Assembly: GCA_041479945.1 (NCBI GenBank)
Contig: JBGOYZ010000001.1
Coordinates: 563 to 64,562, forward strand
Source of the DNA: Thermoproteota archaeon
GTDB taxonomy: Archaea; Thermoproteota; EX4484-205; JAAOZO01
Length of the DNA stretch: 64,000 bases
Reading direction: 5' to 3'
A program made the translations under genes and the position numbers. The first letter of the stretch is position 1. Every line of letters starts with the position of its first letter. The notes below the pieces were generated by a model. It had not been told where the DNA came from and searched no databases. It saw only the letters and a list, made by a program, of their open reading frames with translations. Shown one piece after another: positions 3,256 to 35,721 of this stretch.

Positions 3256-4068
3256 CTATCCTAAGTAGTCTGGCCCTTCTGTTCCTCTGCCCTGCAGGAG
3301 GGAAGAGAAACGTTGATCCTCCTCAAGCCTGCGTAGCCCCTTCTGGTACTGTTCCTGCAATTCTCTCCACCTGTCAGTCTCGGCCTCGAACTTGGAGAAG
3401 TTCAAGCCCAACTTCAGCAGCGTGTCAACGTTCACGAGGACGTGTTTGGCCGCTTCTAGGTCGGGACCCTCGCTGTTCGTCAGCCCGAGTACGCCTACGC
3501 CTTGCAGTCCAAGCAATCTGCTCAAACCGAGTGCTATTCCGGCTGCACCTACTATGGGAGTTCCAGCGGGGGCCATCGTGAATCCGTCGGTCTTGAGTTG
3601 TGCTGCCATTCGGGCGTCCGATGTGAAGACGTAGGTCCTCAGGTTTTCACGCGGTGGTTCCATGTGGCCGCCGACCGTGATGACCTTGGTTCCGCCAACT
3701 TTCTTGAAGAAAGACAACAACACTCGACACGTTTCATACTCTCCTCCCATCATCTCTTGATGTTGTTCGCCTAGGGCCAAGACCAGATCCCCGTCTGGCC
3801 TGGGCTTCAGATACAAACGCACTGCTGTTAGCCGTGCGATCCCATCCTTTCCAACGACTGCTTGAGAGCTGAAATACGGTGATGTCACGATGCCGATCTG
3901 CTTTGCGGACAATTCCCTGACCAAGAACCGCAAGACAACCTCGCCGATCCTTCCCAACCCCGGATACCCAGATATCAAAGTGGGTCTGGATACAACCCAG
4001 TTCTTCCTAATCCATATCCTTGGGTGTGTGAAATAGTACACGTTGGGATCTATCCCGCCTGAGAACAT
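3256..4068 (-). CDS. PAC2-family (proteasome assembly chaperone-like) protein
   Basis: GYPGLGRIGEVV resembles the PAC2-family G-x-P-G-x-G motif. Size and composition fit archaeal PAC2 proteins. The track start at 4128 is GTG and would overlap the Nop10 start; ATG at 4068 (M21) sits behind a TTAAAT box and is preferred. Confidence 0.5.
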   Translation of the reverse strand: MFSGGIDPNVYYFTHPRIWIRKNWVVSRPTLISGYPGLGRIGEVVLRFLVRELSAKQIGIVTSPYFSSQAVVGKDGIARLTAVRLYLKPRPDGDLVLALGEQHQEMMGGEYETCRVLLSFFKKVGGTKVITVGGHMEPPRENLRTYVFTSDARMAAQLKTDGFTMAPAGTPIVGAAGIALGLSRLLGLQGVGVLGLTNSEGPDLEAAKHVLVNVDTLLKLGLNFSKFEAETDRWRELQEQYQKGLRRLEEDQRFSSLLQGRGTEGPDYLG

Positions 4069-6084: not shown

Positions 6085-7273
6085 CAGAAGCCACCCCCTT
6101 CAGGATGAGATACGCCGCTATGTATCTCGGAACGCTCGCGGTTTCGTTTGAAAACGGTCCAACTTTGCGGTCTCCGATCTCCACCTCGGGGGCAAATGAC
6201 ACAGAAACCTGAACCTCCGACCGTCCGTACTCGGGTATCAGAGACAAGACATTTGCATCGATCTTGTCCAATGGCACTCGTTGCTTTGGAAGCCCGCTCT
6301 TGCTATTAAGAGTTCCAGGCATTCTGAATACCCTGTGGATGTCCATCGTCACCGAGGGATCCACAACAATGGCTGCTCTCTGCCAAGCCCGTCTCAACAG
6401 TTTTCTTGCCCTCTTGATGCCCAGCAAGACAACGATGTCTTCGATTTTCCCCTTGTTGAGGGCTAGGAGAATCCTCTGCTTATTGTCTTTCAAGAGGGAC
6501 ACGCCGTCATCCTCTAAGATGTCGCCATGTTGGCTTGCGTTGTTTGCGACGTCTAGGATCTCCTCCTGCAGCCTCCTGCCAATCCCCCCCGCTCTTATGG
6601 TTCTCAAGTTGGCAGACTTGCCAGGCGAGTAACTGTCCATAGCTCCTTCAAGGGACAAGTAGCTCGTAATCTCCCTTCTTGCATCCGGCCCAAGTTCACC
6701 GATTGCCTTTGAAGTCACATATACATGGAATCCCATGTGACCGCTGAAGTAGACAGCGATGTCCTTTTCCTCTATTCCTAACTCCTCGATTAGAGCCGAA
6801 TGTAATCTCTTCGCCTGGTGGGCGGTGGACGCAATGCACCTGAAGCTCATGAACTCGACCGTACGACTCTCTTCCGAGCAGTTCGGACACTTCTTCTTGT
6901 TTCCCCTTCTGTGTGACCCACACTTCGGGCATACCGAGTAGGTCATCTCTTCAACGCAGTCTGGCTGCACATCCTTGGCATCAACATCGAAGGCAAGATC
7001 GGCCCACAGCGCACTCTTGTGTTCCATAGGCTTCTCTGGAAACTCATACACAGCACAGGAGTGATACGCATCCGCAGGAGTGTTGTTGAGAACGTACTCT
7101 CTCACATCAGTCAGGGATCTAAAGCTCATATGTCTGACCATTGCTCTGTCCGGCCAGACGGCGAACCCTATCTCCCTACTGTTCACTGGGGGCGGAACGT
7201 ACACCGCCTCGGAATGGTTTGAGTAGTACTCCGCGAAGACCGAACGTAAGAAGCGGATGTCCTGCTCTTTCAT
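6077..7273 (-). CDS. priS: DNA primase small (catalytic) subunit PriS
   Basis: AFDVDAKD catalytic acidic motif, FSGHMGFHVYV primase motif, and zinc knuckle CPKCGSHRRGNKKKCPNCS. 398 aa. Confidence 0.85.
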   Translation of the reverse strand: MKEQDIRFLRSVFAEYYSNHSEAVYVPPPVNSREIGFAVWPDRAMVRHMSFRSLTDVREYVLNNTPADAYHSCAVYEFPEKPMEHKSALWADLAFDVDAKDVQPDCVEEMTYSVCPKCGSHRRGNKKKCPNCSEESRTVEFMSFRCIASTAHQAKRLHSALIEELGIEEKDIAVYFSGHMGFHVYVTSKAIGELGPDARREITSYLSLEGAMDSYSPGKSANLRTIRAGGIGRRLQEEILDVANNASQHGDILEDDGVSLLKDNKQRILLALNKGKIEDIVVLLGIKRARKLLRRAWQRAAIVVDPSVTMDIHRVFRMPGTLNSKSGLPKQRVPLDKIDANVLSLIPEYGRSEVQVSVSFAPEVEIGDRKVGPFSNETASVPRYIAAYLILKGVASVG

Positions 7274-11924: not shown

Positions 11925-12755
11925 TCATCTTCGTCTGGAGATGCTGATGACGGCGTCTGTCACCACAAGCAAATCGTCGACCGATAGCTCGAAGACCCGC
12001 ATGGTCAGGAACTTGGCCATGGCGGGGTTCTCAAGCAGAGGCTTCGGGAGATTCGACATCTTGATCGCTTTGACCACCTTTCTCCTCCGATATCTGAACA
12101 ACTCCCTCGTGACGTCCTGTAGCGCCCGTAACTCTTCTTGGCCGACCCTGTTGGGTTTTTGGACCATCTTGAGGAGCGAAATCTCCGTTGAGGGAGGAGG
12201 AAAGAAGGAAGAAGGAGGATAAGTAACCAGCTCTTGGACGGCGTAGTTCAGCTGGAGCAGGACCGAAAGTCTTCCATACTCCCTCTGTCCCTCGATCGCC
12301 GTCAGTCGCCTTGCGTAGTCTTTCTCAAGGGTCGTGACGATGAGCCGTGGTGCCTCCTCTATGAGCTTCAAGATCATTTTTGATGAGATGCCGAAAGGCG
12401 GGTTGGAGATGCACTTATCATACTTGACCAATTCAACATGAAGGTAGTCTCCCTCTATGACGTTTATCGAGGGCTGTCCAGAGAACCTGCTTTTGAGGAG
12501 GTCAGCCAGACGCCTATCTTTCTCTACGACCGTTAGGGTCTTCGGTCCTTGACTAGCCAGGCGCGCCGTGAGCGTCCCTATCCCCCCTCCAATCTCAAGC
12601 ACTTCATCAGTTGGCCCTAGGTTGGCCTCTTGGACAATACGTTCCAGAAGCGATGAGCTGACTACGAAGTTCTGACCAAGGCGTTTGATCGGCCTGAACC
12701 CCCACGAACGGATGGCACTTTTTGTCTCCCCGAGAAGGTCCAGTTCACCCGTCAT
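11925..12755 (-). CDS. rsmA: 16S rRNA (adenine1518/1519-N6) dimethyltransferase KsgA/Dim1
   Basis: GQNFVVSSSLLERIV, SAM-binding LEIGGGIGTLT, and the NPPFGISS motif. Confidence 0.9.
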   Translation of the reverse strand: MTGELDLLGETKSAIRSWGFRPIKRLGQNFVVSSSLLERIVQEANLGPTDEVLEIGGGIGTLTARLASQGPKTLTVVEKDRRLADLLKSRFSGQPSINVIEGDYLHVELVKYDKCISNPPFGISSKMILKLIEEAPRLIVTTLEKDYARRLTAIEGQREYGRLSVLLQLNYAVQELVTYPPSSFFPPPSTEISLLKMVQKPNRVGQEELRALQDVTRELFRYRRRKVVKAIKMSNLPKPLLENPAMAKFLTMRVFELSVDDLLVVTDAVISISRRR

Positions 12756-13318
12756 CTCACGAATAGCCTGTATCTCTGCTGGGTTGAAATCTCTTCGATG
12801 ATCCGCGCAACTATCACTTTGACTGGGTTGGCTACCTTGGTGCGTTGCGTAAAGTCCTCGAAAGAGGAGAACGCCCCCCTTTCCCTTTCCTCTATGATCC
12901 TGCGCGTCGTACTCCTGCCTATGCCAGACAGCAGTTCAAAGGCATGTAATCTGGGGGTGAGGAGCCCCATTGAGTTCAGGATCCCAATGTACTTCTCTTG
13001 GTTGCTTATGACCATGTCTTCCAGTACAGATGGAAGGCTGTCTTTGGCGGTCTGGCTGAGGCTTTCATAGTCGATTCTACCGAGTACGGATACAGCCTCC
13101 TTCTTCGGGCCATTCCCGACATAGATCTTGGCCCCAACGCTGAGGCCCACTCCCTTCACTATGGCCACCTCCAAGATTGCGAAGAAGTCCTCTCCGATGC
13201 ACTGCACATATGGCATGGACTCTCTTCGCCAGGCCTTTTTTGGAACCCCTGACCTTATGTAGTCAAGTACTCGTGCGAATTCCTCACGGTGCCTAAACTC
13301 CTGCCTCCGGGTGATCAT
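12752..13318 (-). CDS. DUF655-family HhH nucleic-acid-binding protein
   Basis: 188 aa, conserved archaeal partner immediately upstream of ksgA. Carries a helix-hairpin-helix signature (LLSGIGRSTTRRIIEER). Confidence 0.55.
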   Translation of the reverse strand: MITRRQEFRHREEFARVLDYIRSGVPKKAWRRESMPYVQCIGEDFFAILEVAIVKGVGLSVGAKIYVGNGPKKEAVSVLGRIDYESLSQTAKDSLPSVLEDMVISNQEKYIGILNSMGLLTPRLHAFELLSGIGRSTTRRIIEERERGAFSSFEDFTQRTKVANPVKVIVARIIEEISTQQRYRLFVR

Positions 13319-13655
13319 GATTGAGCCTCCTATCAGAGCATCACCCTACGAAGTGGGCACTTCGAGTCAATCGAACCCCACTGACCGAAGGCAGAAGGTG
13401 TCATGGCCTGTGTTAGTTGGTACGCCCGCGAGATAGGATTTTAAGATTTTAGCGCTTTTGGGACTACACGCGGCACCATTCGGCCTTGGCTGGCCGACCC
13501 GTTTTAGTCTCCAAACTCTTCTCTCCGACAAACATATCAACTGCACGAGGTTTCCTGATTCAGGCGACGATGAGGAGTCAAAGTTACTTTGACAATATGA
13601 AAGAAAGGCATTTGTCCGAGTCGCCTTCTATTGTCCCTTTGAGGATCAACACAGG

Positions 13656-13762
13656 CGCCCCGGCCGGGATTTGAACTCCCGGGTCATAAGACCTCCCGGG
13701 TCTGGCGGGTGATTCGGCTCTATGAACAGCCGCCAATGTTAGCCGGTCTGCACTACCGGGGC
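13656..13762 (-). tRNA. tRNA, intron-containing or atypical (anticodon unresolved; GUU or CAU candidates)
   Basis: Minus-strand sequence GCCCCGG-TA-...-CGGGA-GTTCAAA-TCCCG-(G)-CCGGGGC-G has a 7-bp acceptor stem and a canonical T-arm. A 4-bp variable-arm-like hairpin (GGTC-TTAT-GACC) is present. At 107 nt it needs an intron or extra arm. The TTTAAATAA TATA box is about 27 nt upstream at 13788-13797. Confidence 0.55.
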
Positions 13763-13785
13763 ACCTTAGGTCGACTTCTCCAAAT

Positions 13786-13797
13786 GTTATTTAAACT
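13786..13797 (-). promoter_or_regulatory. Archaeal TATA box (TTTAAATAA) for the minus-strand tRNA
   Basis: The reverse complement of atgttatttaaac reads GTTTAAATAACAT, a near-consensus TTTAWATA, about 25-30 nt upstream of the tRNA 5' end at 13762. Confidence 0.6.
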
Positions 13798-13860
13798 TGA
13801 GAACTGGCGCCGCAGCCTTTTCCGTGAAAAACTTATCAAGGGTCGAGGTCGGTTGTTCTC

Positions 13861-14039
13861 GTCCCGCTGTAGCTCAGCCTGGTAGAGCTTCCGAGCCTGT
13901 GAGGGCGAAGATGCTGTAGGTGTCGACCTTGTGTCGATCCGTTCAGCTTACCGGGCTAAAAGCAGAAACCGGATTGTCGCTGGAGGTCGATGACCGGCGA
14001 ATTCAAAAGCCGATGGCTGAAACTCCAGCCGGCGGGACC
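13861..14039 (+). tRNA. tRNA-like element, probably a multi-intron pre-tRNA (identity unresolved)
   Basis: 5' GTCCCGC...TAGCTCAGCCTGGTAGAGC is a perfect D-arm consensus. The 3' end GCGGGAC-C is exactly complementary to the 5' 7-mer. The two are separated by about 150 nt holding several local hairpins and a CTGTGAG loop. Confidence 0.4.
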
Positions 14040-14086
14040 ACTTCAACCGAGCGATAACCTTTTTACATAAACCGCAAAATGACCTC

Positions 14087-14196
14087 GGGCCCGTAGCTCA
14101 GCATGGTAGAGCGCCGGAGATGATGTCGGCGAGGCTTTTAACCCGGGTGTCTCGGGTTCGAAGGAATAATGCTTTCCGGAAGTCCCGACGGGCCCG
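14087..14196 (+). tRNA. tRNA-Lys(UUU) with two non-canonical introns
   Basis: GGGCCCG-TA-GCTCAGCATGGTAGAGC-G-CCGG[AGATGATGTCGGCGAG]G-CTTTTAA-CCCGG-GTGTC-TCGGG-TTCGAA[GGAATAATGCTTTCCGGAAG]T-CCCGA-CGGGCCC-G. Removing a 16-nt insert in the anticodon-stem 5' strand and a 20-nt insert in the T-loop gives a canonical Lys(UUU) tRNA. A TTTTTACATAAA box lies about 27 nt upstream. Confidence 0.8.
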
Positions 14197-14276
14197 CATG
14201 ACGATTTGTGTTACTTGCCTTTTGAGTAACGTTAAAATAAGAGGATTTCGGGACCCATGAAGGGCTGGGGGTTGTT

Positions 14277-14528
14277 TTGTCATCTCGAGTTACGGATTTT
14301 AGTCCTTTAGAGCACGTTCTTTCACCGAAGTATGAGATACTTGGAGAGGAAGAGAAGAAGGAACTGCTGAAGAAGTACAAAATCAAGCCCTACAACCTGC
14401 CCAGAATCTTGTCCAGCGATCCGGCCGTCAAGGTTCTCGGAGCCAATGTTGGTGACGTGCTGAAGACAACCAAGAAGAGCGAGACGGCAGGAGAGTCAAC
14501 CTACTACAGGCTGGTGGTAATCGAATGA
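14277..14528 (+). CDS. rpoH: DNA-directed RNA polymerase subunit H (Rpb5 homologue)
   Basis: 83 aa: HVLSPKYEILGEEEKKELLKKYKIKPYNLPRILSSDPAVKVLGANVGDVLKTTKKSETAGESTYYRLVV. Overlaps the rpoB start as ATGA. Confidence 0.8.
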   Translation: MSSRVTDFSPLEHVLSPKYEILGEEEKKELLKKYKIKPYNLPRILSSDPAVKVLGANVGDVLKTTKKSETAGESTYYRLVVIE

Positions 14529-17906: not shown

Positions 17907-20900
17907 ATGAGTAGAGAACTAGAAGTAAAGTCGATCGATTCCATAACCTTTGGACTGCTGAGTCCGGCTACCATAAGGAAGATGTCCGTTGTTGAGATAA
18001 CCTCAGAGGAGGTCTACAATGAGGATGGTACTGCTGTGCCTGGAGGCGTGATGGATCTTCGACTTGGAACCATCGAACCCAGCCAACGGTGTCATACCTG
18101 TGGCAACCCCCCGACTCGGTGCCCGGGACACTATGGGCACATTGAGCTTCCAACTCCGATTGTCAATTATCTTTTCGCCAAGGAAATCCACCTCCTTCTG
18201 ACGATCACATGCAGGTCTTGTGGTAGGATACTCCTCCCTGATGAAAAGATCACGGATTATGGACAAGAGATGGCCAGATATCAGAAAGAATTCGGAGCCA
18301 TTCCCAACAAGATCTACTCCCAGATCATCCGGGAGGCAAAACGCATGGCCAGCTGTCCTCATTGTGGCTCCGCTCAATATGTGGTCAAGCCGGTCAAGCC
18401 CGCGGGCTTCTTTGAAGTCACCCCAGAGAAGATCACAACCAAGCTTACCCCAGCTATGGTGAGAGAACGGCTTGATAGGATCCCAGATGATGACCTTGTC
18501 TTGGTGAGGCTCGATCCCGAACTGGGTAGGCCAGAATGGATGGTGTTAGAGGTACTTCCAGTGCCACCAGTGCAGGTTAGGCCCTCGATCATACTTGAAA
18601 CCGGGGAAAGGTCGGAGGATGACCTCACGCACAAGTTGGTTGACATAGTTCGAGCCTCACAGCGCATGAAAGATGCCTTAGAGAGTGGTTCGTCACCCAT
18701 GATCGTCCAAGATTTCGATGAGCTCCTTCAGTATCACGTGACCACGTATCTGGACAACGAGGCCACGGGCGTTCCTCCATCCAGACATAGAACGAACAAG
18801 ATACTGAGGACCCTGTCTCAGAGGTTGAAAGGGAAGGAAGGTAGGTTCAGGAAGAACCTATCGGGGAAGAGGGTGGATTTCTCGGCTAGAACCGTGATAT
18901 CTCCCGACCCGTCGATCGCTGTGGATGAAGTTGGGGTTCCGATAGATGTTGCCATGGAGCTGACTGTCCCAGAGAAGGTCAACCCATTCAACAGAGAGGC
19001 ACTTCTCGCTCTTGTGAAGAACGGGGCATCGAAGTATCCAGGGGTCCGATATGTGATAAGGCCGGACGGCGCTAGGATAAAACTTGAGTTCGTGAAGGAT
19101 CTGGAGGCGTTCGCTGAAAGCGTCGCCGAGGGATTTATCGTCGAAAGACACCTACTTGACGGAGACTACGTTGTTTTCAACCGCCAGCCATCTCTTCACA
19201 GGATCTCGATGATGGGGCACAAGGTACGCGTGCTTCCTGGCAGAACCTTCAGGCTCCACCCCGCTGTCTGTACCCCGTATAACGCTGACTTCGATGGGGA
19301 CGAGATGAACTTACACGTTCCGCAAAGCGTCGAGGCGGTAGCTGAAACCAAGGAACTGCTTCAGGTCATGAAAAACTACATCACGCCCAGATACGGAGCG
19401 CCAATCGTGGGTGCCATAAGAGACTTCGTCACCGGTGCCTATCTGCTGACGCGCTCTGACACGGTTCTCACTAGAAAGGAGTTCTTCATGCTCCTTGAAG
19501 CCGCTGGAGTGGACCGAAACCGCATAGAGTCAGCTATCAAGAAACCGAAAGCGACATGGTCAGGCAAAGAGGCGTTCAGCGCGCTCCTGCCTGCGGATCT
19601 GCACTACAAAACTAGGGCGTCGGTTTGTGCGAACGATCCGAAATGTGACGAGGACAGCTGTCCTCATGAAGGCTTTGTGGTCATAGAAGATGGTGTGTTA
19701 CTGAAGGGAGTAATGGACAAGGCTTCCCTGGGTGCTGAGAAGCCTGCAACCATCATTCACGAAATCCTGTTGAACTACGGTGAAGTAGAGGCCCACAAGT
19801 TCCTGACATCACTCACTCGAATGATATCCACGTTCCTGAAGCTCAGAGGATTCAGTATGACTTACGCTGAACTCATCCTATCTGATCAGGCAAAAGATTG
19901 GATAGAGAGGGATCTCTCATCCGCGGACGACCGCGTGGCCGAGGTCATCTCTCAGTTCAAATCGGGAAAGTTGCAGAAGATACCCGGCCAGTCACAGGAG
20001 GATTCAGTGGAGGCCTACATCATGGACGTGCTCTCTGACATAAGGACCAGAACCGGCGAGTTGGCCAGCAAATCCTTGGGGCTCGACAACAGCGCGGTTG
20101 TGATGACGAGGACCGGTGCTCGGGGTTCCGATCTCAACTTGGGCCAAATGTGTGCGGCACTGGGGCCACAGCAGGTCCGTGGCAAGAGGATCTCAAGGGG
20201 GTATCTCGGGAGACCTCTTCCACACTTCAGGAGAGGAGACATTGGACCTGCTGCTAGGGGATTCATCAAGTCAAGTTACATGACAGGGCTTTCACCGGTT
20301 GAATTCTTCTATCACAGCATGGGAGGGAGAGAGTCATTGGTCGACACAGCTGTAAGGACGCAGCAGAGCGGATACCTCCAAAGGCGTCTGATTCACGCCC
20401 TTGAAACCCTGAAGGTGGAATATGATGGCACCGTGCGGGATCCATACGAGAACATCGTGGAGTTCATCTACGGTGACGATGGTCTGGATCCCGCGAAGAG
20501 CTACCACGGCAAGTTCCCAGTGGAGACGATAATCCGCAAACTCGCCTCATCAATGGACGTCAAGCTCGGTGTCAAGGCTGACAAGGTCGCAATCAGATCG
20601 GCGGTTGCCGCAAGAGTCAAGGACATTCCTCCCCTCATAGCGAAGGAGCTGGAGGGTGCGCTCCTATCACTTGGTGCGGATCCAGCGAGGGCACCGGAGG
20701 TAATCGACGCTACCTTGCGCAGGTATCTTGAGCTCACCGTGGACCCAGGCGAGTCCGTCGGGGTAATAGCGGCCCAGTCAATTGGTGAACCCGGGACGCA
20801 AATGACACTCCGAACCTTCCACTACGCCGGCATAAAGGAGGCCAACGTAACGCTGGGCCTTCCTAGGCTAATAGAGCTCTTGGACGCGAGAAGGATTCCC

Positions 20901-21734
20901 AAGACGCCATTGATGGAAGTTCATCTCTCCCCGGAGTATCGCGAGGATCAAAAGGAGGTTCTCAAAATCGCTAGGAGGATGCCATACACCTCTGTTGAAG
21001 ACATCGCCTCTGAAATCAAGATTCAGCAGTTCAAATCCGTGATAACCATAGGACTCTCAAAAGAAATGATGGTGGAGAGAGGGGTAACTCCGAAGAAGCT
21101 CCAGAGGAGTCTGATCGAAGCCGGCTTTAGACCCAGAAGGGAAAAGAAATTCGAGATCTCAATCACTGTCAAGGATTCTGAGGGAGACCTTACTCCGGTC
21201 GTCGACAAACTGAGAAAGGTTCCAGTCTCCGGCTTGTCGTCTGTTTCTAGGGTCACAGTCCGGGAAAAGGACGGCGAGTGGGTCATATTCACGGAGGGAT
21301 CCAATCTGATGGAAGCCTTGAAGATGCCAGAGGTTGACAAGACCCGGGTATTCACAAACAACATTCACGAGATCGGCGAAGTCCTAGGAATAGAGTCGGC
21401 CAGGACTGCCTTGGTCAAGGAGCTGAAAGACACTCTGGAGGAGCAAGGGCTTGATGTTGATATCAGGCACATAATGTTAGTGGCGTCCGCGATGACTACC
21501 TCCGGAAGGGTCAAACAGATAGGTAGGCACGGTCTCTCAGGAGAAAAAGTGAGTGTGCTGGCTAAGGCCGCGTTCGAGAGGACCATTCCCACACTAGTGG
21601 AGGGTGCCATCACCGGTTCAACAGATCACATGAGAGGAATGACTGAACGTGTCCTTGCAGGCGAGGAGATCAAAGCTGGGACAGGCATGATCGACGTGTA
21701 TGTCGATCTTAGGAAAGGTTTAACTCAACAATAA
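17907..21734 (+). CDS. rpoA: DNA-directed RNA polymerase subunit A, fused A' plus A''
   Basis: 1275-aa continuous ORF. It contains the RpoA' N-terminal zinc motifs, the NADFDGDEMN active-site motif, and the RpoA'' trigger-loop region GESVGVIAAQSIGEPGTQMTLRTFHYAG, all in one frame with no stop or frameshift. Confidence 0.9.
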   Translation: MSRELEVKSIDSITFGLLSPATIRKMSVVEITSEEVYNEDGTAVPGGVMDLRLGTIEPSQRCHTCGNPPTRCPGHYGHIELPTPIVNYLFAKEIHLLLTITCRSCGRILLPDEKITDYGQEMARYQKEFGAIPNKIYSQIIREAKRMASCPHCGSAQYVVKPVKPAGFFEVTPEKITTKLTPAMVRERLDRIPDDDLVLVRLDPELGRPEWMVLEVLPVPPVQVRPSIILETGERSEDDLTHKLVDIVRASQRMKDALESGSSPMIVQDFDELLQYHVTTYLDNEATGVPPSRHRTNKILRTLSQRLKGKEGRFRKNLSGKRVDFSARTVISPDPSIAVDEVGVPIDVAMELTVPEKVNPFNREALLALVKNGASKYPGVRYVIRPDGARIKLEFVKDLEAFAESVAEGFIVERHLLDGDYVVFNRQPSLHRISMMGHKVRVLPGRTFRLHPAVCTPYNADFDGDEMNLHVPQSVEAVAETKELLQVMKNYITPRYGAPIVGAIRDFVTGAYLLTRSDTVLTRKEFFMLLEAAGVDRNRIESAIKKPKATWSGKEAFSALLPADLHYKTRASVCANDPKCDEDSCPHEGFVVIEDGVLLKGVMDKASLGAEKPATIIHEILLNYGEVEAHKFLTSLTRMISTFLKLRGFSMTYAELILSDQAKDWIERDLSSADDRVAEVISQFKSGKLQKIPGQSQEDSVEAYIMDVLSDIRTRTGELASKSLGLDNSAVVMTRTGARGSDLNLGQMCAALGPQQVRGKRISRGYLGRPLPHFRRGDIGPAARGFIKSSYMTGLSPVEFFYHSMGGRESLVDTAVRTQQSGYLQRRLIHALETLKVEYDGTVRDPYENIVEFIYGDDGLDPAKSYHGKFPVETIIRKLASSMDVKLGVKADKVAIRSAVAARVKDIPPLIAKELEGALLSLGADPARAPEVIDATLRRYLELTVDPGESVGVIAAQSIGEPGTQMTLRTFHYAGIKEANVTLGLPRLIELLDARRIPKTPLMEVHLSPEYREDQKEVLKIARRMPYTSVEDIASEIKIQQFKSVITIGLSKEMMVERGVTPKKLQRSLIEAGFRPRREKKFEISITVKDSEGDLTPVVDKLRKVPVSGLSSVSRVTVREKDGEWVIFTEGSNLMEALKMPEVDKTRVFTNNIHEIGEVLGIESARTALVKELKDTLEEQGLDVDIRHIMLVASAMTTSGRVKQIGRHGLSGEKVSVLAKAAFERTIPTLVEGAITGSTDHMRGMTERVLAGEEIKAGTGMIDVYVDLRKGLTQQ

Positions 21735-35542: not shown

Positions 35543-35656
35543 GGGCCCGTAGCTCAGCATGGAAGAGCAGCAGATGTCGGGCTAGCTGATGCTCTTAACC
35601 TGATGGTCACGGGAATGGAATCCCGCCAGAAATGGGTTCAAATCCCATCGGGCCCG
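35543..35656 (+). tRNA. tRNA with multiple non-canonical introns, probably tRNA-Lys(CUU)
   Basis: GGGCCCG-TA-GCTCAGCATGGAAGAGC...CTCTTAA...CCCGC-CAGAA-ATGGG-TTCAAAT-CCCAT-CGGGCCC-G. The acceptor, D-arm and T-arm are canonical. A CTCTTAA Lys(CUU)-type anticodon loop is visible, but about 40 extra nt sit in and around the anticodon arm. The first insert (AGATGTCGG...) resembles intron 1 of tRNA-Lys(UUU) at 14117-14132. Confidence 0.65.
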
Positions 35657-35721
35657 CGTCACTTCTCGTCCAGTTGTTCGATTGCGGGCGCTTAATTCAG
35701 TGAAAGTCTGGTCGAATTCAG

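Follow-up and report, generated by a model that had tools for sequence, protein, structure and literature searches.

A probable tRNA-Tyr gene with four bulge-helix-bulge introns in a Thermoproteota archaeon

Can a stretch of DNA whose two ends read as tRNA, and whose interior does not fold into a single canonical cloverleaf, still be a working tRNA gene? The question is raised by a 179-nt element at positions 13861-14039 of a 64,000-nucleotide stretch of contig JBGOYZ010000001.1 (hereafter the window), taken from assembly GCA_041479945.1 of a Thermoproteota archaeon. An earlier note, made from the letters of the window, had offered several candidates: a tRNA with three or more introns, a tRNA whose intron hosts a small RNA such as a C/D-box guide, a tRNA-derived regulatory RNA and, failing these, a decayed pseudogene. 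The analysis described here bears out the first of these. The element is very probably a functional archaeal tRNA-Tyr(GUA) gene that carries four protein-spliced bulge-helix-bulge (BHB) introns at tRNA positions 30/31, 37/38, 53/54 and 59/60.

Five exons and a spliced cloverleaf

The gene spans 13863-14040 on the plus strand, with all five exons colinear within 178 nt. Its parts are given below; the exon boundaries were read outward from the tRNA anchors and are supported by ARAGORN on the spliced product and by a combinatorial splicing solver whose design follows.

13832-13839, plus strand: TATA-like box CTTATCAA, at -31 to -24 from tRNA nucleotide 1, putative promoter element
13863-13893, plus strand: exon 1, 31 nt, tRNA positions 1-30, with the acceptor 5' strand CCCGCUG, U8 and A9, the D-arm, U26 and anticodon stem 27-30
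13876-13885, plus strand: D-loop segment A14-G22 (AGCCUGGUAG) within exon 1, predicted target of the antisense segment of intron 2
13894-13912, plus strand: intron 1, 19 nt, at 30/31, central helix CUUC/GAAG (four Watson-Crick pairs), inner hairpin GCCU-GUGA-GGGC
13913-13919, plus strand: exon 2, a 7-nt micro-exon GCUGUAG, positions 31-37
13920-13967, plus strand: intron 2, 48 nt, at the canonical 37/38 site, central helix CUGU/GCAG, 5' hairpin GUCGAC-CUUGU-GUCGAU and the D-loop antisense segment
13948-13957, plus strand: segment UUACCGGGCU within intron 2, antisense to D-loop 13876-13885 over 10 bp including G-U pairs
13968-13983, plus strand: exon 3, 16 nt, positions 38-53, with A38, anticodon stem 3' strand CCGGA, variable loop UUGUC and T-stem 5' strand GCUGG
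13984-14001, plus strand: intron 3, 18 nt, at 53/54, central helix CGCU/GGCG, inner hairpin GGUC-GAU-GACC
14002-14007, plus strand: exon 4, a 6-nt micro-exon UUCAAA, T-loop positions 54-59
14008-14023, plus strand: intron 4, 16 nt, at 59/60, central helix UUCA/UGAA (four Watson-Crick pairs), inner hairpin GCC-GAU-GGC
14024-14040, plus strand: exon 5, 17 nt, positions 60-76, with U60, T-stem 3' strand CCAGC, the acceptor 3' strand at 14030-14036, A73 at 14037 and CCA at 14038-14040
14060-14064, plus strand: T5 run, predicted transcription terminator, 20 nt past the CCA

Splicing these exons by hand yields a 77-nt product that ARAGORN calls as tRNA-Tyr(gta), with all four stems fully paired, C1:G72, A73 and an encoded CCA; the CCA is encoded in most of the multi-intron orthologues as well. 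The acceptor stem is formed by 13863-13869 (CCCGCUG) and 14030-14036 (CGGCGGG) with a single U:G wobble, U6:G67, and on reading the sequence the register of its 5' strand is fixed by U8 and A9 ahead of the GCUC D-stem. The D-arm is textbook-like (UAGCUCAGCCUGGUAGAGC). The anticodon GUA lies at 13916-13918, inside a CUGUAG string at 13914-13919, and together with C1:G72 and the discriminator A73 completes the set of three tRNA-Tyr features; the combination of C1:G72 and A73 is the archaeal and eukaryotic tRNA-Tyr signature. An insertion of 4 nt into the 3' strand of the acceptor stem (CAGC[CGGC]GGG) was considered and dropped, as the U6:G67 wobble register explains the pairing. The exons being colinear, on one strand and at one locus, the gene is neither split nor permuted.

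The features that the earlier note had seen are all there. Its 5' tRNA-like part, GTCCCGC-TG-TAGCTCAGCCTGGTAGAGC, is present and begins at 13861, and the features CTGTGAG, CCGG...CCGG and TGGAG...CTCCA all occur in the sequence. The GCGGGAC that complements the 5' 7-mer (13861-13867) is found at 14032-14038, although the end that the note gave to the element, 14039, lies one base past it. The pairing of the two 7-mers does follow the true acceptor register, but it is shifted outward by two bases, the extra pairs being -1:73 and -2:74. The weak upstream box AAACTTAT is plausibly an archaeal TATA box, CTTATCAA in the register given above, and orthologues have similar A/T boxes (CTTATAGG, TTAAATA or TTTATAT), mostly 25-40 nt upstream and in a few cases up to ~45 nt. 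Archaeal oligo-T runs serve as terminators, which is the basis on which the T5 run is read as one.

Conventional searches return little from this window. ARAGORN in its default mode called 0 of the 4 tRNA genes in the 64 kb, and Rfam at the gathering threshold recovered one window tRNA, at 35543-35656. The Rfam tRNA model gave no match to the Tyr element even at E<=10 and default ARAGORN was likewise blank there, so that standard tools do not see the element at all. Allowed one intron, ARAGORN missed the Tyr gene, solved the neighbouring Asp gene in part and mis-called the tRNA-Lys(CTT) gene as Ser(GGA).

The solver takes as candidates all introns of 10-70 nt whose ends form a 4-bp central helix in the BHB register, with cleavage after the second nucleotide of each 3-nt bulge and exon positions p-5 to p-2 pairing with intron positions n-5 to n-2. 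All combinations of up to four candidates are removed and each spliced product is scored by ARAGORN. Applied to 13859-14044, it generated 198 candidate introns and 194,066 products, among which the top score of 120.5 belonged to a tRNA-Tyr with exactly the four introns; the runners-up scored <=116 and were malformed. The same procedure was applied to 30 dinucleotide-shuffled versions and to 30 segments of 186 nt drawn at random from the 64 kb, at ~10^5 products each; none of the 60 gave a tRNA, and the result for the real sequence is far beyond chance. All four central helices have 4 of 4 pairs, and the inner hairpins of introns 1, 2, 3 and 4 comprise 4, 1, 4 and 3 bp, respectively.

The locus recurs in independent assemblies and is therefore not an assembly artefact: positions 13600-14300 are 100% identical over the full 701 nt in four of them (L001-L004), and the tRNA region is 100% identical over the part present in two more, 629 nt in the case of L005 and 381 nt in that of L006, which begins inside the gene.

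Orthologues and their intron layouts

The adjoining RpoB protein is shared without any change by at least six assemblies, which come from JGI sediment metagenomes, NCBI (GCA_964405495.1) and a Logan run. Its closest species representatives share 71-74% RpoB identity and are labelled Candidatus Brockarchaeota in one case and Nitrososphaerota or Thaumarchaeota in the others, while hot-spring Brockarchaeota share 58-59%. Judged by RpoB identity and record labels, the host lineage appears to be Brockarchaeota-like.

Relatives with fewer introns provide an independent view of the mature sequence. The relatives that follow all have their tRNA-Tyr upstream of rpoH/rpoB. In L011 and L020 the gene carries the canonical 37/38 intron only and exon 1 is directly joined to exon 2; with the tRNA model of Rfam, L011 scores 52.7 bits. 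In L009 a further intron near 45/46 accompanies the canonical one and in L072, L074 and L010 an extra D-loop intron does so, while L031, the nearest relative, has three introns at 30/31, 37/38 and 59/60 and lacks that at 53/54. Of 74 exon positions, 70-71 match the predicted mature sequence in L011, L020, L009, L074 and L031, while L072 and L010 have 65-66 matches; this agreement confirms the splice model independently.

A broader sample came from a metagenome scan with the pattern GGTAGAGCTTCCG N{0,30} GCTGTAG, the matches of which were spliced by dynamic programming against the mature sequence and then validated with ARAGORN. The counts that follow, in this paragraph and the next, are those among the matches listed. 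At least 95 unique pre-tRNA-Tyr sequences were obtained. The canonical intron stands alone in at least 35 unique sequences and is joined by the 30/31 intron in at least 21; at least nine have the same four introns as the window gene, at least two have five introns with the extra one at 9/10, and three-intron layouts together with minor or ambiguous parses make up at least 28 sequences. In the nine four-intron orthologues the introns are longer and unrelated in sequence, and the acceptor stems differ. Four matches (L162, L172, L171 and L119) were chance hits to the pattern and not tRNAs.

Each splice site can be followed separately through this sample. Central helices with 4 of 4 pairs, for which the chance expectation is ~2%, were found in 52 of 53 introns at 30/31, 92 of 96 at 37/38, 13 of 19 at 53/54 and 23 of 24 at 59/60. 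Intron 1 is absent in L011, L020 and L200 and present in at least 53 validated orthologues; intron 2 is found in nearly all; intron 3 is absent in L031 and found in L159, L157, L142, L154 and others; intron 4 is absent in L134, and its hairpin differs in sequence from lineage to lineage with the pairing retained. Wherever an intron is missing the flanking exons are directly joined, as in L011 and L020 (37/38 only), L031 (no 53/54), L134 (no 59/60) and L200 (no 30/31). Since L031, L134 and L200 each lack a single intron, each intron is a separate unit. The inner hairpins vary in sequence in every lineage and keep their pairing; with the conserved central helices, these compensated hairpins suggest purifying selection on the splicing signals, and conservation with compensatory change of this kind argues strongly that the gene is functional.

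Two tRNA-Tyr orthologues carry five introns, at 9/10, 30/31, 37/38, 53/54 and 59/60: L154 at 12139-12351 (plus strand) and L151 at 6386-6597 on the reverse complement of the locus. For L154 the solver returned introns 12148-12170, 12193-12216, 12224-12271, 12288-12309 and 12316-12337 with a score of 120.9. Synteny searches found no genes shared between the five-intron contigs and the window. The resulting graded series of one, two, three, four and five introns in a single gene could serve for studying the gain and loss of BHB introns.

A separate observation concerns the leader of some of these genes. Just ahead of the real 5' end, some 12 nt before position 1 of tRNA-Tyr, the acceptor 5' strand is repeated, completely in L151, L154 and L107 (TCCCGCGGA) and in part in L169 (TCCCGC), and these four are the genes with a 9/10 intron. 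The repeat might be a leader-trailer pairing element or the trace of an intron insertion.

Intron 2, rival readings and a splicing pathway

In its 3' half the canonical intron is conserved, the consensus across 87 orthologous canonical introns being CAGCCUAYCAGGC..ACAGAA. Its ACAG is the central-helix strand, while CUAYCAGGC is the gene's own D-loop, G15-G22, in reverse complement. The longest ungapped duplex between D-loop and intron measures 8-11 bp in 82 of 87 unique combinations, with a mean of 8.9 against 5.8 for shuffled introns. Aligned with MAFFT, 35 distinct sequences give 315 cells, of which 99.4% are paired, compared with 13-48% when the partner is slid. Position 17 and its partner form C:G in 23 of these sequences, U:A in 11 and U:G in one; five further pairs vary on the intron side only, through transitions that preserve pairing, and none of 500 shuffles reached the observed covariation score. 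In the U17 lineages an alternative, intron-internal hairpin (GCCU/AGGC) is broken and the D-loop pairing is intact. The two sister genes with five introns are set apart by precisely this double change, L154 having C17/G and L151 U17/A. The pairing spans lineages that share this tRNA-Tyr D-arm and anticodon stem, and literature searches found no description of an intron:D-loop pairing in archaeal pre-tRNA-Tyr.

What such a pairing could be for is a matter for a tentative proposal, and one that may well prove wrong: the canonical intron would act in cis as an antisense element that clamps its own D-loop (14/15-22) until the last splicing step, its pairing conserved and covarying across many uncultured lineages; up to five BHB introns have accumulated in this one gene in the same clade. 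A clamp of this type could enforce the order of processing, keep the tRNA from folding or being charged too early, or expose the D-loop to modification, and if functional it would constitute a new intron-encoded feature of tRNA maturation. The nearest precedent is the archaeal pre-tRNA-Trp intron, which, in the account of Clouet d'Orval 2001 and Singh 2004 given in a 2014 review (PMC4090602), contains boxes C, D', C' and D and acts as the guide for Cm34 and Um39; the review terms it a "unique example" of a tRNA intron that encodes a unit with a function for the tRNA it belongs to. The likeness lies in a 37/38 intron with sequence complementary to exons of its own tRNA, and the difference in that intron 2 of the Tyr gene is boxless and has the D-loop, 14/15-22, as its target. 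If the clamp is real, functional tRNA introns complementary to their exons would come in two kinds, this second one lacking the boxes that define the tRNA-Trp C/D guide.

The same complementarity has a rival explanation, namely that one intron of the four-intron gene doubles as host to a small RNA acting in trans, such as a C/D-box or H/ACA guide after the manner of archaeal pre-tRNA-Trp. The tRNA-Trp precedent (PMC4090602) lends itself to this, as do the conserved, covarying 9-10-nt antisense of intron 2 and the GAUGA-like and CUGA strings around introns 3 and 4. However, no C/D or H/ACA boxes are conserved across the 87 canonical introns, no Rfam snoRNA or sRNA matched the window or 12 orthologous loci, and for the element itself Rfam returned no small-RNA family at the gathering threshold or at E<=10. 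The GAU strings form hairpin loops, which differ from one lineage to another, and the 3' ACAG is accounted for by its central-helix pairing with CUGU. An intron-hosted guide, which for the C/D type had been among the original candidates, is accordingly improbable. Two motifs tried in this context were discarded: the GAUGA...CUGA arrangement around introns 3 and 4 as a C/D motif, which consists of hairpin loops and is not conserved in orthologues, and the ACA three bases before the end of intron 2 as an H/ACA box, which belongs to the ACAG central-helix strand.

Readings that dispense with some or all of the introns fare worse. A tRNA pseudogene in decay, or else a repeat or regulatory RNA derived from a tRNA, with an interior of junk and not of introns, would be in keeping with the silence of default ARAGORN across the window and of the Rfam tRNA model here. 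Yet removal of the introns leaves a flawless tRNA-Tyr where the controls yield none, one and the same layout turns up in diverged lineages, where the central helices are intact and the inner hairpins differ in sequence yet still pair, and the gene region is 100% conserved wherever it is present in six assemblies; both the pseudogene and the regulatory RNA are very unlikely on these grounds. A gene with fewer introns or another identity has some appeal of its own, for the CTGTGAG heptamer resembles an anticodon loop, which the earlier note had read as GUG (His), and a 7-bp helix GCTGGAG/CTCCAGC encloses the whole of 13986-14022, as though one large T-arm intron stood in place of introns 3 and 4. 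But CTGTGAG has no stem in tRNA register around it and is the loop of the intron 1 hairpin, the true anticodon being GTA at 13916-13918, and the archaeal signature C1:G72 with A73 points to tyrosine. A single T-arm intron cannot yield a UUCRANN T-loop, and because L031 lacks intron 3 only and L134 intron 4 only, introns 3 and 4 are separate units. With the solver's next-best alternatives falling short and malformed, such a reading deserves hardly any credence.

Three points nonetheless weigh against a gene with four BHB introns. Plain minimum free energy folding of the whole precursor misses some of the four motifs, as is usual for motifs of this kind; the intron 1 motif and the intron 4 hairpin are recovered only in some partly spliced forms, so the folding says little on splicing order. 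The 1-bp inner helix of intron 2 represents a relaxed BHB form that relies on its outer helix and would need an endonuclease of broad specificity, of the alpha2beta2 or epsilon2 type. Finally, we infer the splicing of the 6- and 7-nt micro-exons from conservation only.

If the gene is spliced at all four introns, its maturation may be pictured as follows. Transcription from the TATA box ~30 nt upstream would produce a precursor of roughly 180-200 nt, from which RNase P would trim the short leader, and the 3' trailer beyond the encoded CCA would be removed. The tRNA splicing endonuclease EndA would cut within the 3-nt bulges on either side of each 4-bp central helix, and an RtcB-type ligase would join the five exons. 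Introns 1 and 3 would be cut first, their helix-bulge-inner-hairpin motifs being complete in the primary transcript. Loss of intron 1 would rebuild the anticodon stem, which is the outer helix for the canonical intron 2, and loss of intron 3 would rebuild the T-stem, the outer helix for intron 4. Because the sequence reads such that the outer helices of introns 2 and 4 become contiguous only once introns 1 and 3 have left, the probable order is 1 and 3, then 2 and 4. Until its excision, intron 2 would pair with the D-loop through its 10-nt antisense segment.

The same order is known from experiment in Cyanidioschyzon merolae, where the non-canonical introns of a three-intron nuclear tRNA-Ile are removed before that at 37/38 (Soma 2013, PMC3728597). 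This organism differs in being a eukaryote with a maximum of three BHB introns per tRNA gene, some of the genes concerned being circularly permuted as well (PMC3728597). In Thermoproteales (Pyrobaculum, Thermofilum, Caldivirga), the work of Sugahara 2008 and Fujishima 2010, as summarised in PMC4033280 and PMC8450103, likewise describes a sequential removal of neighbouring introns.

Neighbouring tRNA genes and known multi-intron systems

All four tRNA genes of the window bear introns, ten in total. Besides tRNA-Tyr, they are the following:

13654-13762, minus strand: tRNA-Asp(GUC), two introns, one of 14 nt in the anticodon loop and one of 19 nt at 53/54 (AGGTCTTATGACCCGGGAG); solver score 121.3
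14087-14196, plus strand: tRNA-Lys(UUU), two introns, 14118-14133 at 30/31 and 14163-14182 at 59/60
35543-35657, plus strand: tRNA-Lys(CUU), two introns, 35574-35590 at 30/31 and 35609-35631 near 48/49, the latter with 3 of 4 central-helix pairs

The tRNA-Asp gene is missed by default tools and the unspliced tRNA-Lys(UUU) gene attains just 17.6 bits with Rfam. Intron positions 30/31, 53/54 and 59/60 recur across different tRNAs of the window, the two introns of tRNA-Lys(UUU) occupying the sites of Tyr introns 1 and 4. Tyr intron 3 (AGGUC-GAU-GACC + GGCG + AA) is built in the same way as the 53/54 intron of tRNA-Asp (AGGUC-UUAU-GACC + CGGG + AG). Such recurrent sites and like builds fit the picture of intron spreading drawn for Thermoproteales (PMC4033280). 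In L031, tRNA-Lys(UUU) at 3520-3680 (plus strand) has four introns, none of them canonical, with a solver score of 118.0; four-intron genes in the clade are therefore not confined to tRNA-Tyr.

Non-canonical and multiple BHB introns are well known in the tRNA genes of Thermoproteales and Thaumarchaeota. Published statements put the ceiling for an archaeal tRNA gene at "a maximum of three introns" (PMC4033280) or "up to three" in the tRNAscan-SE 2.0 paper (PMC8450103), a limit exceeded by the four introns of the window gene and the five of its relatives. Thermoproteales resemble the present case in that the same positions recur among tRNAs of one genome and standard finders miss such genes; the difference is one of number, three introns at most against four and five. 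The setting also differs, hyperthermophile isolates on the one hand and a Brockarchaeota-like lineage from cold sediment and peat metagenomes on the other. In density, ten introns in four genes may be set against a Thermoproteales average of 0.84 introns per gene, with P. calidifontis having 71 introns in 46 genes (PMC8450103).

Four introns are not unprecedented, since a supplementary table on Asgard archaea contains genes with four predicted introns (Valentin-Alvarado 2024, PMC11291895, Supplementary Data 4). Its tRNA rows include Arg-TCT, Ile2-CAT and Leu-GAG of Freyarchaeia and Trp-CCA of Atabeyarchaeia, and >90% of the tRNA genes of these archaea are intron-containing. The Asgard lineages belong to another phylum and their tRNA-Tyr genes have 1-3 introns in the tabulated rows; the four-intron cases appear in the supplementary table only, without BHB-motif or orthologue analysis. 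No five-intron gene stands among the tRNA rows for Atabeyarchaeia-2 and Freyarchaeia in Supplementary Data 4, and literature searches found no report of five introns in one tRNA gene and none on tRNA introns in Brockarchaeota. The five introns of L154 and L151 thus exceed any per-gene count found in the literature.

The Tyr gene is the extreme end of a known multi-intron phenomenon, with the 6- and 7-nt micro-exons, which would be demanding for endonuclease and ligase alike, and the conserved D-loop antisense as its unusual extras, and it would extend extreme tRNA-intron proliferation to a Brockarchaeota-like lineage. There is a practical side to this. As default tools miss such genes, estimates of genome completeness and codon capacity for metagenome-assembled genomes will be wrong unless multi-intron-aware tools are used.

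Some observations on the surroundings may be added. Across 11925-14528 the window reads, in order, a KsgA/Dim1 methyltransferase, DUF655, tRNA-Asp (minus strand), tRNA-Tyr (plus), tRNA-Lys (plus), rpoH, rpoB and rpoA. The tRNA cluster upstream of rpoH is retained in L031 and in the relatives with 58-59% RpoB identity; no tRNA lies upstream of rpoH in L007, L008 and L042, whose RpoB is 71-72% identical. The largest subunit of RNA polymerase, at 17907-21734 (plus strand), is a single unsplit open reading frame of 1275 aa with Rpb1 domains 1-5 and no separate A'/A'', and it is unsplit in L031, L007 and L042 as well. An unsplit rpoA is known in Thaumarchaeota and Korarchaeota and would fit the placement of the lineage.

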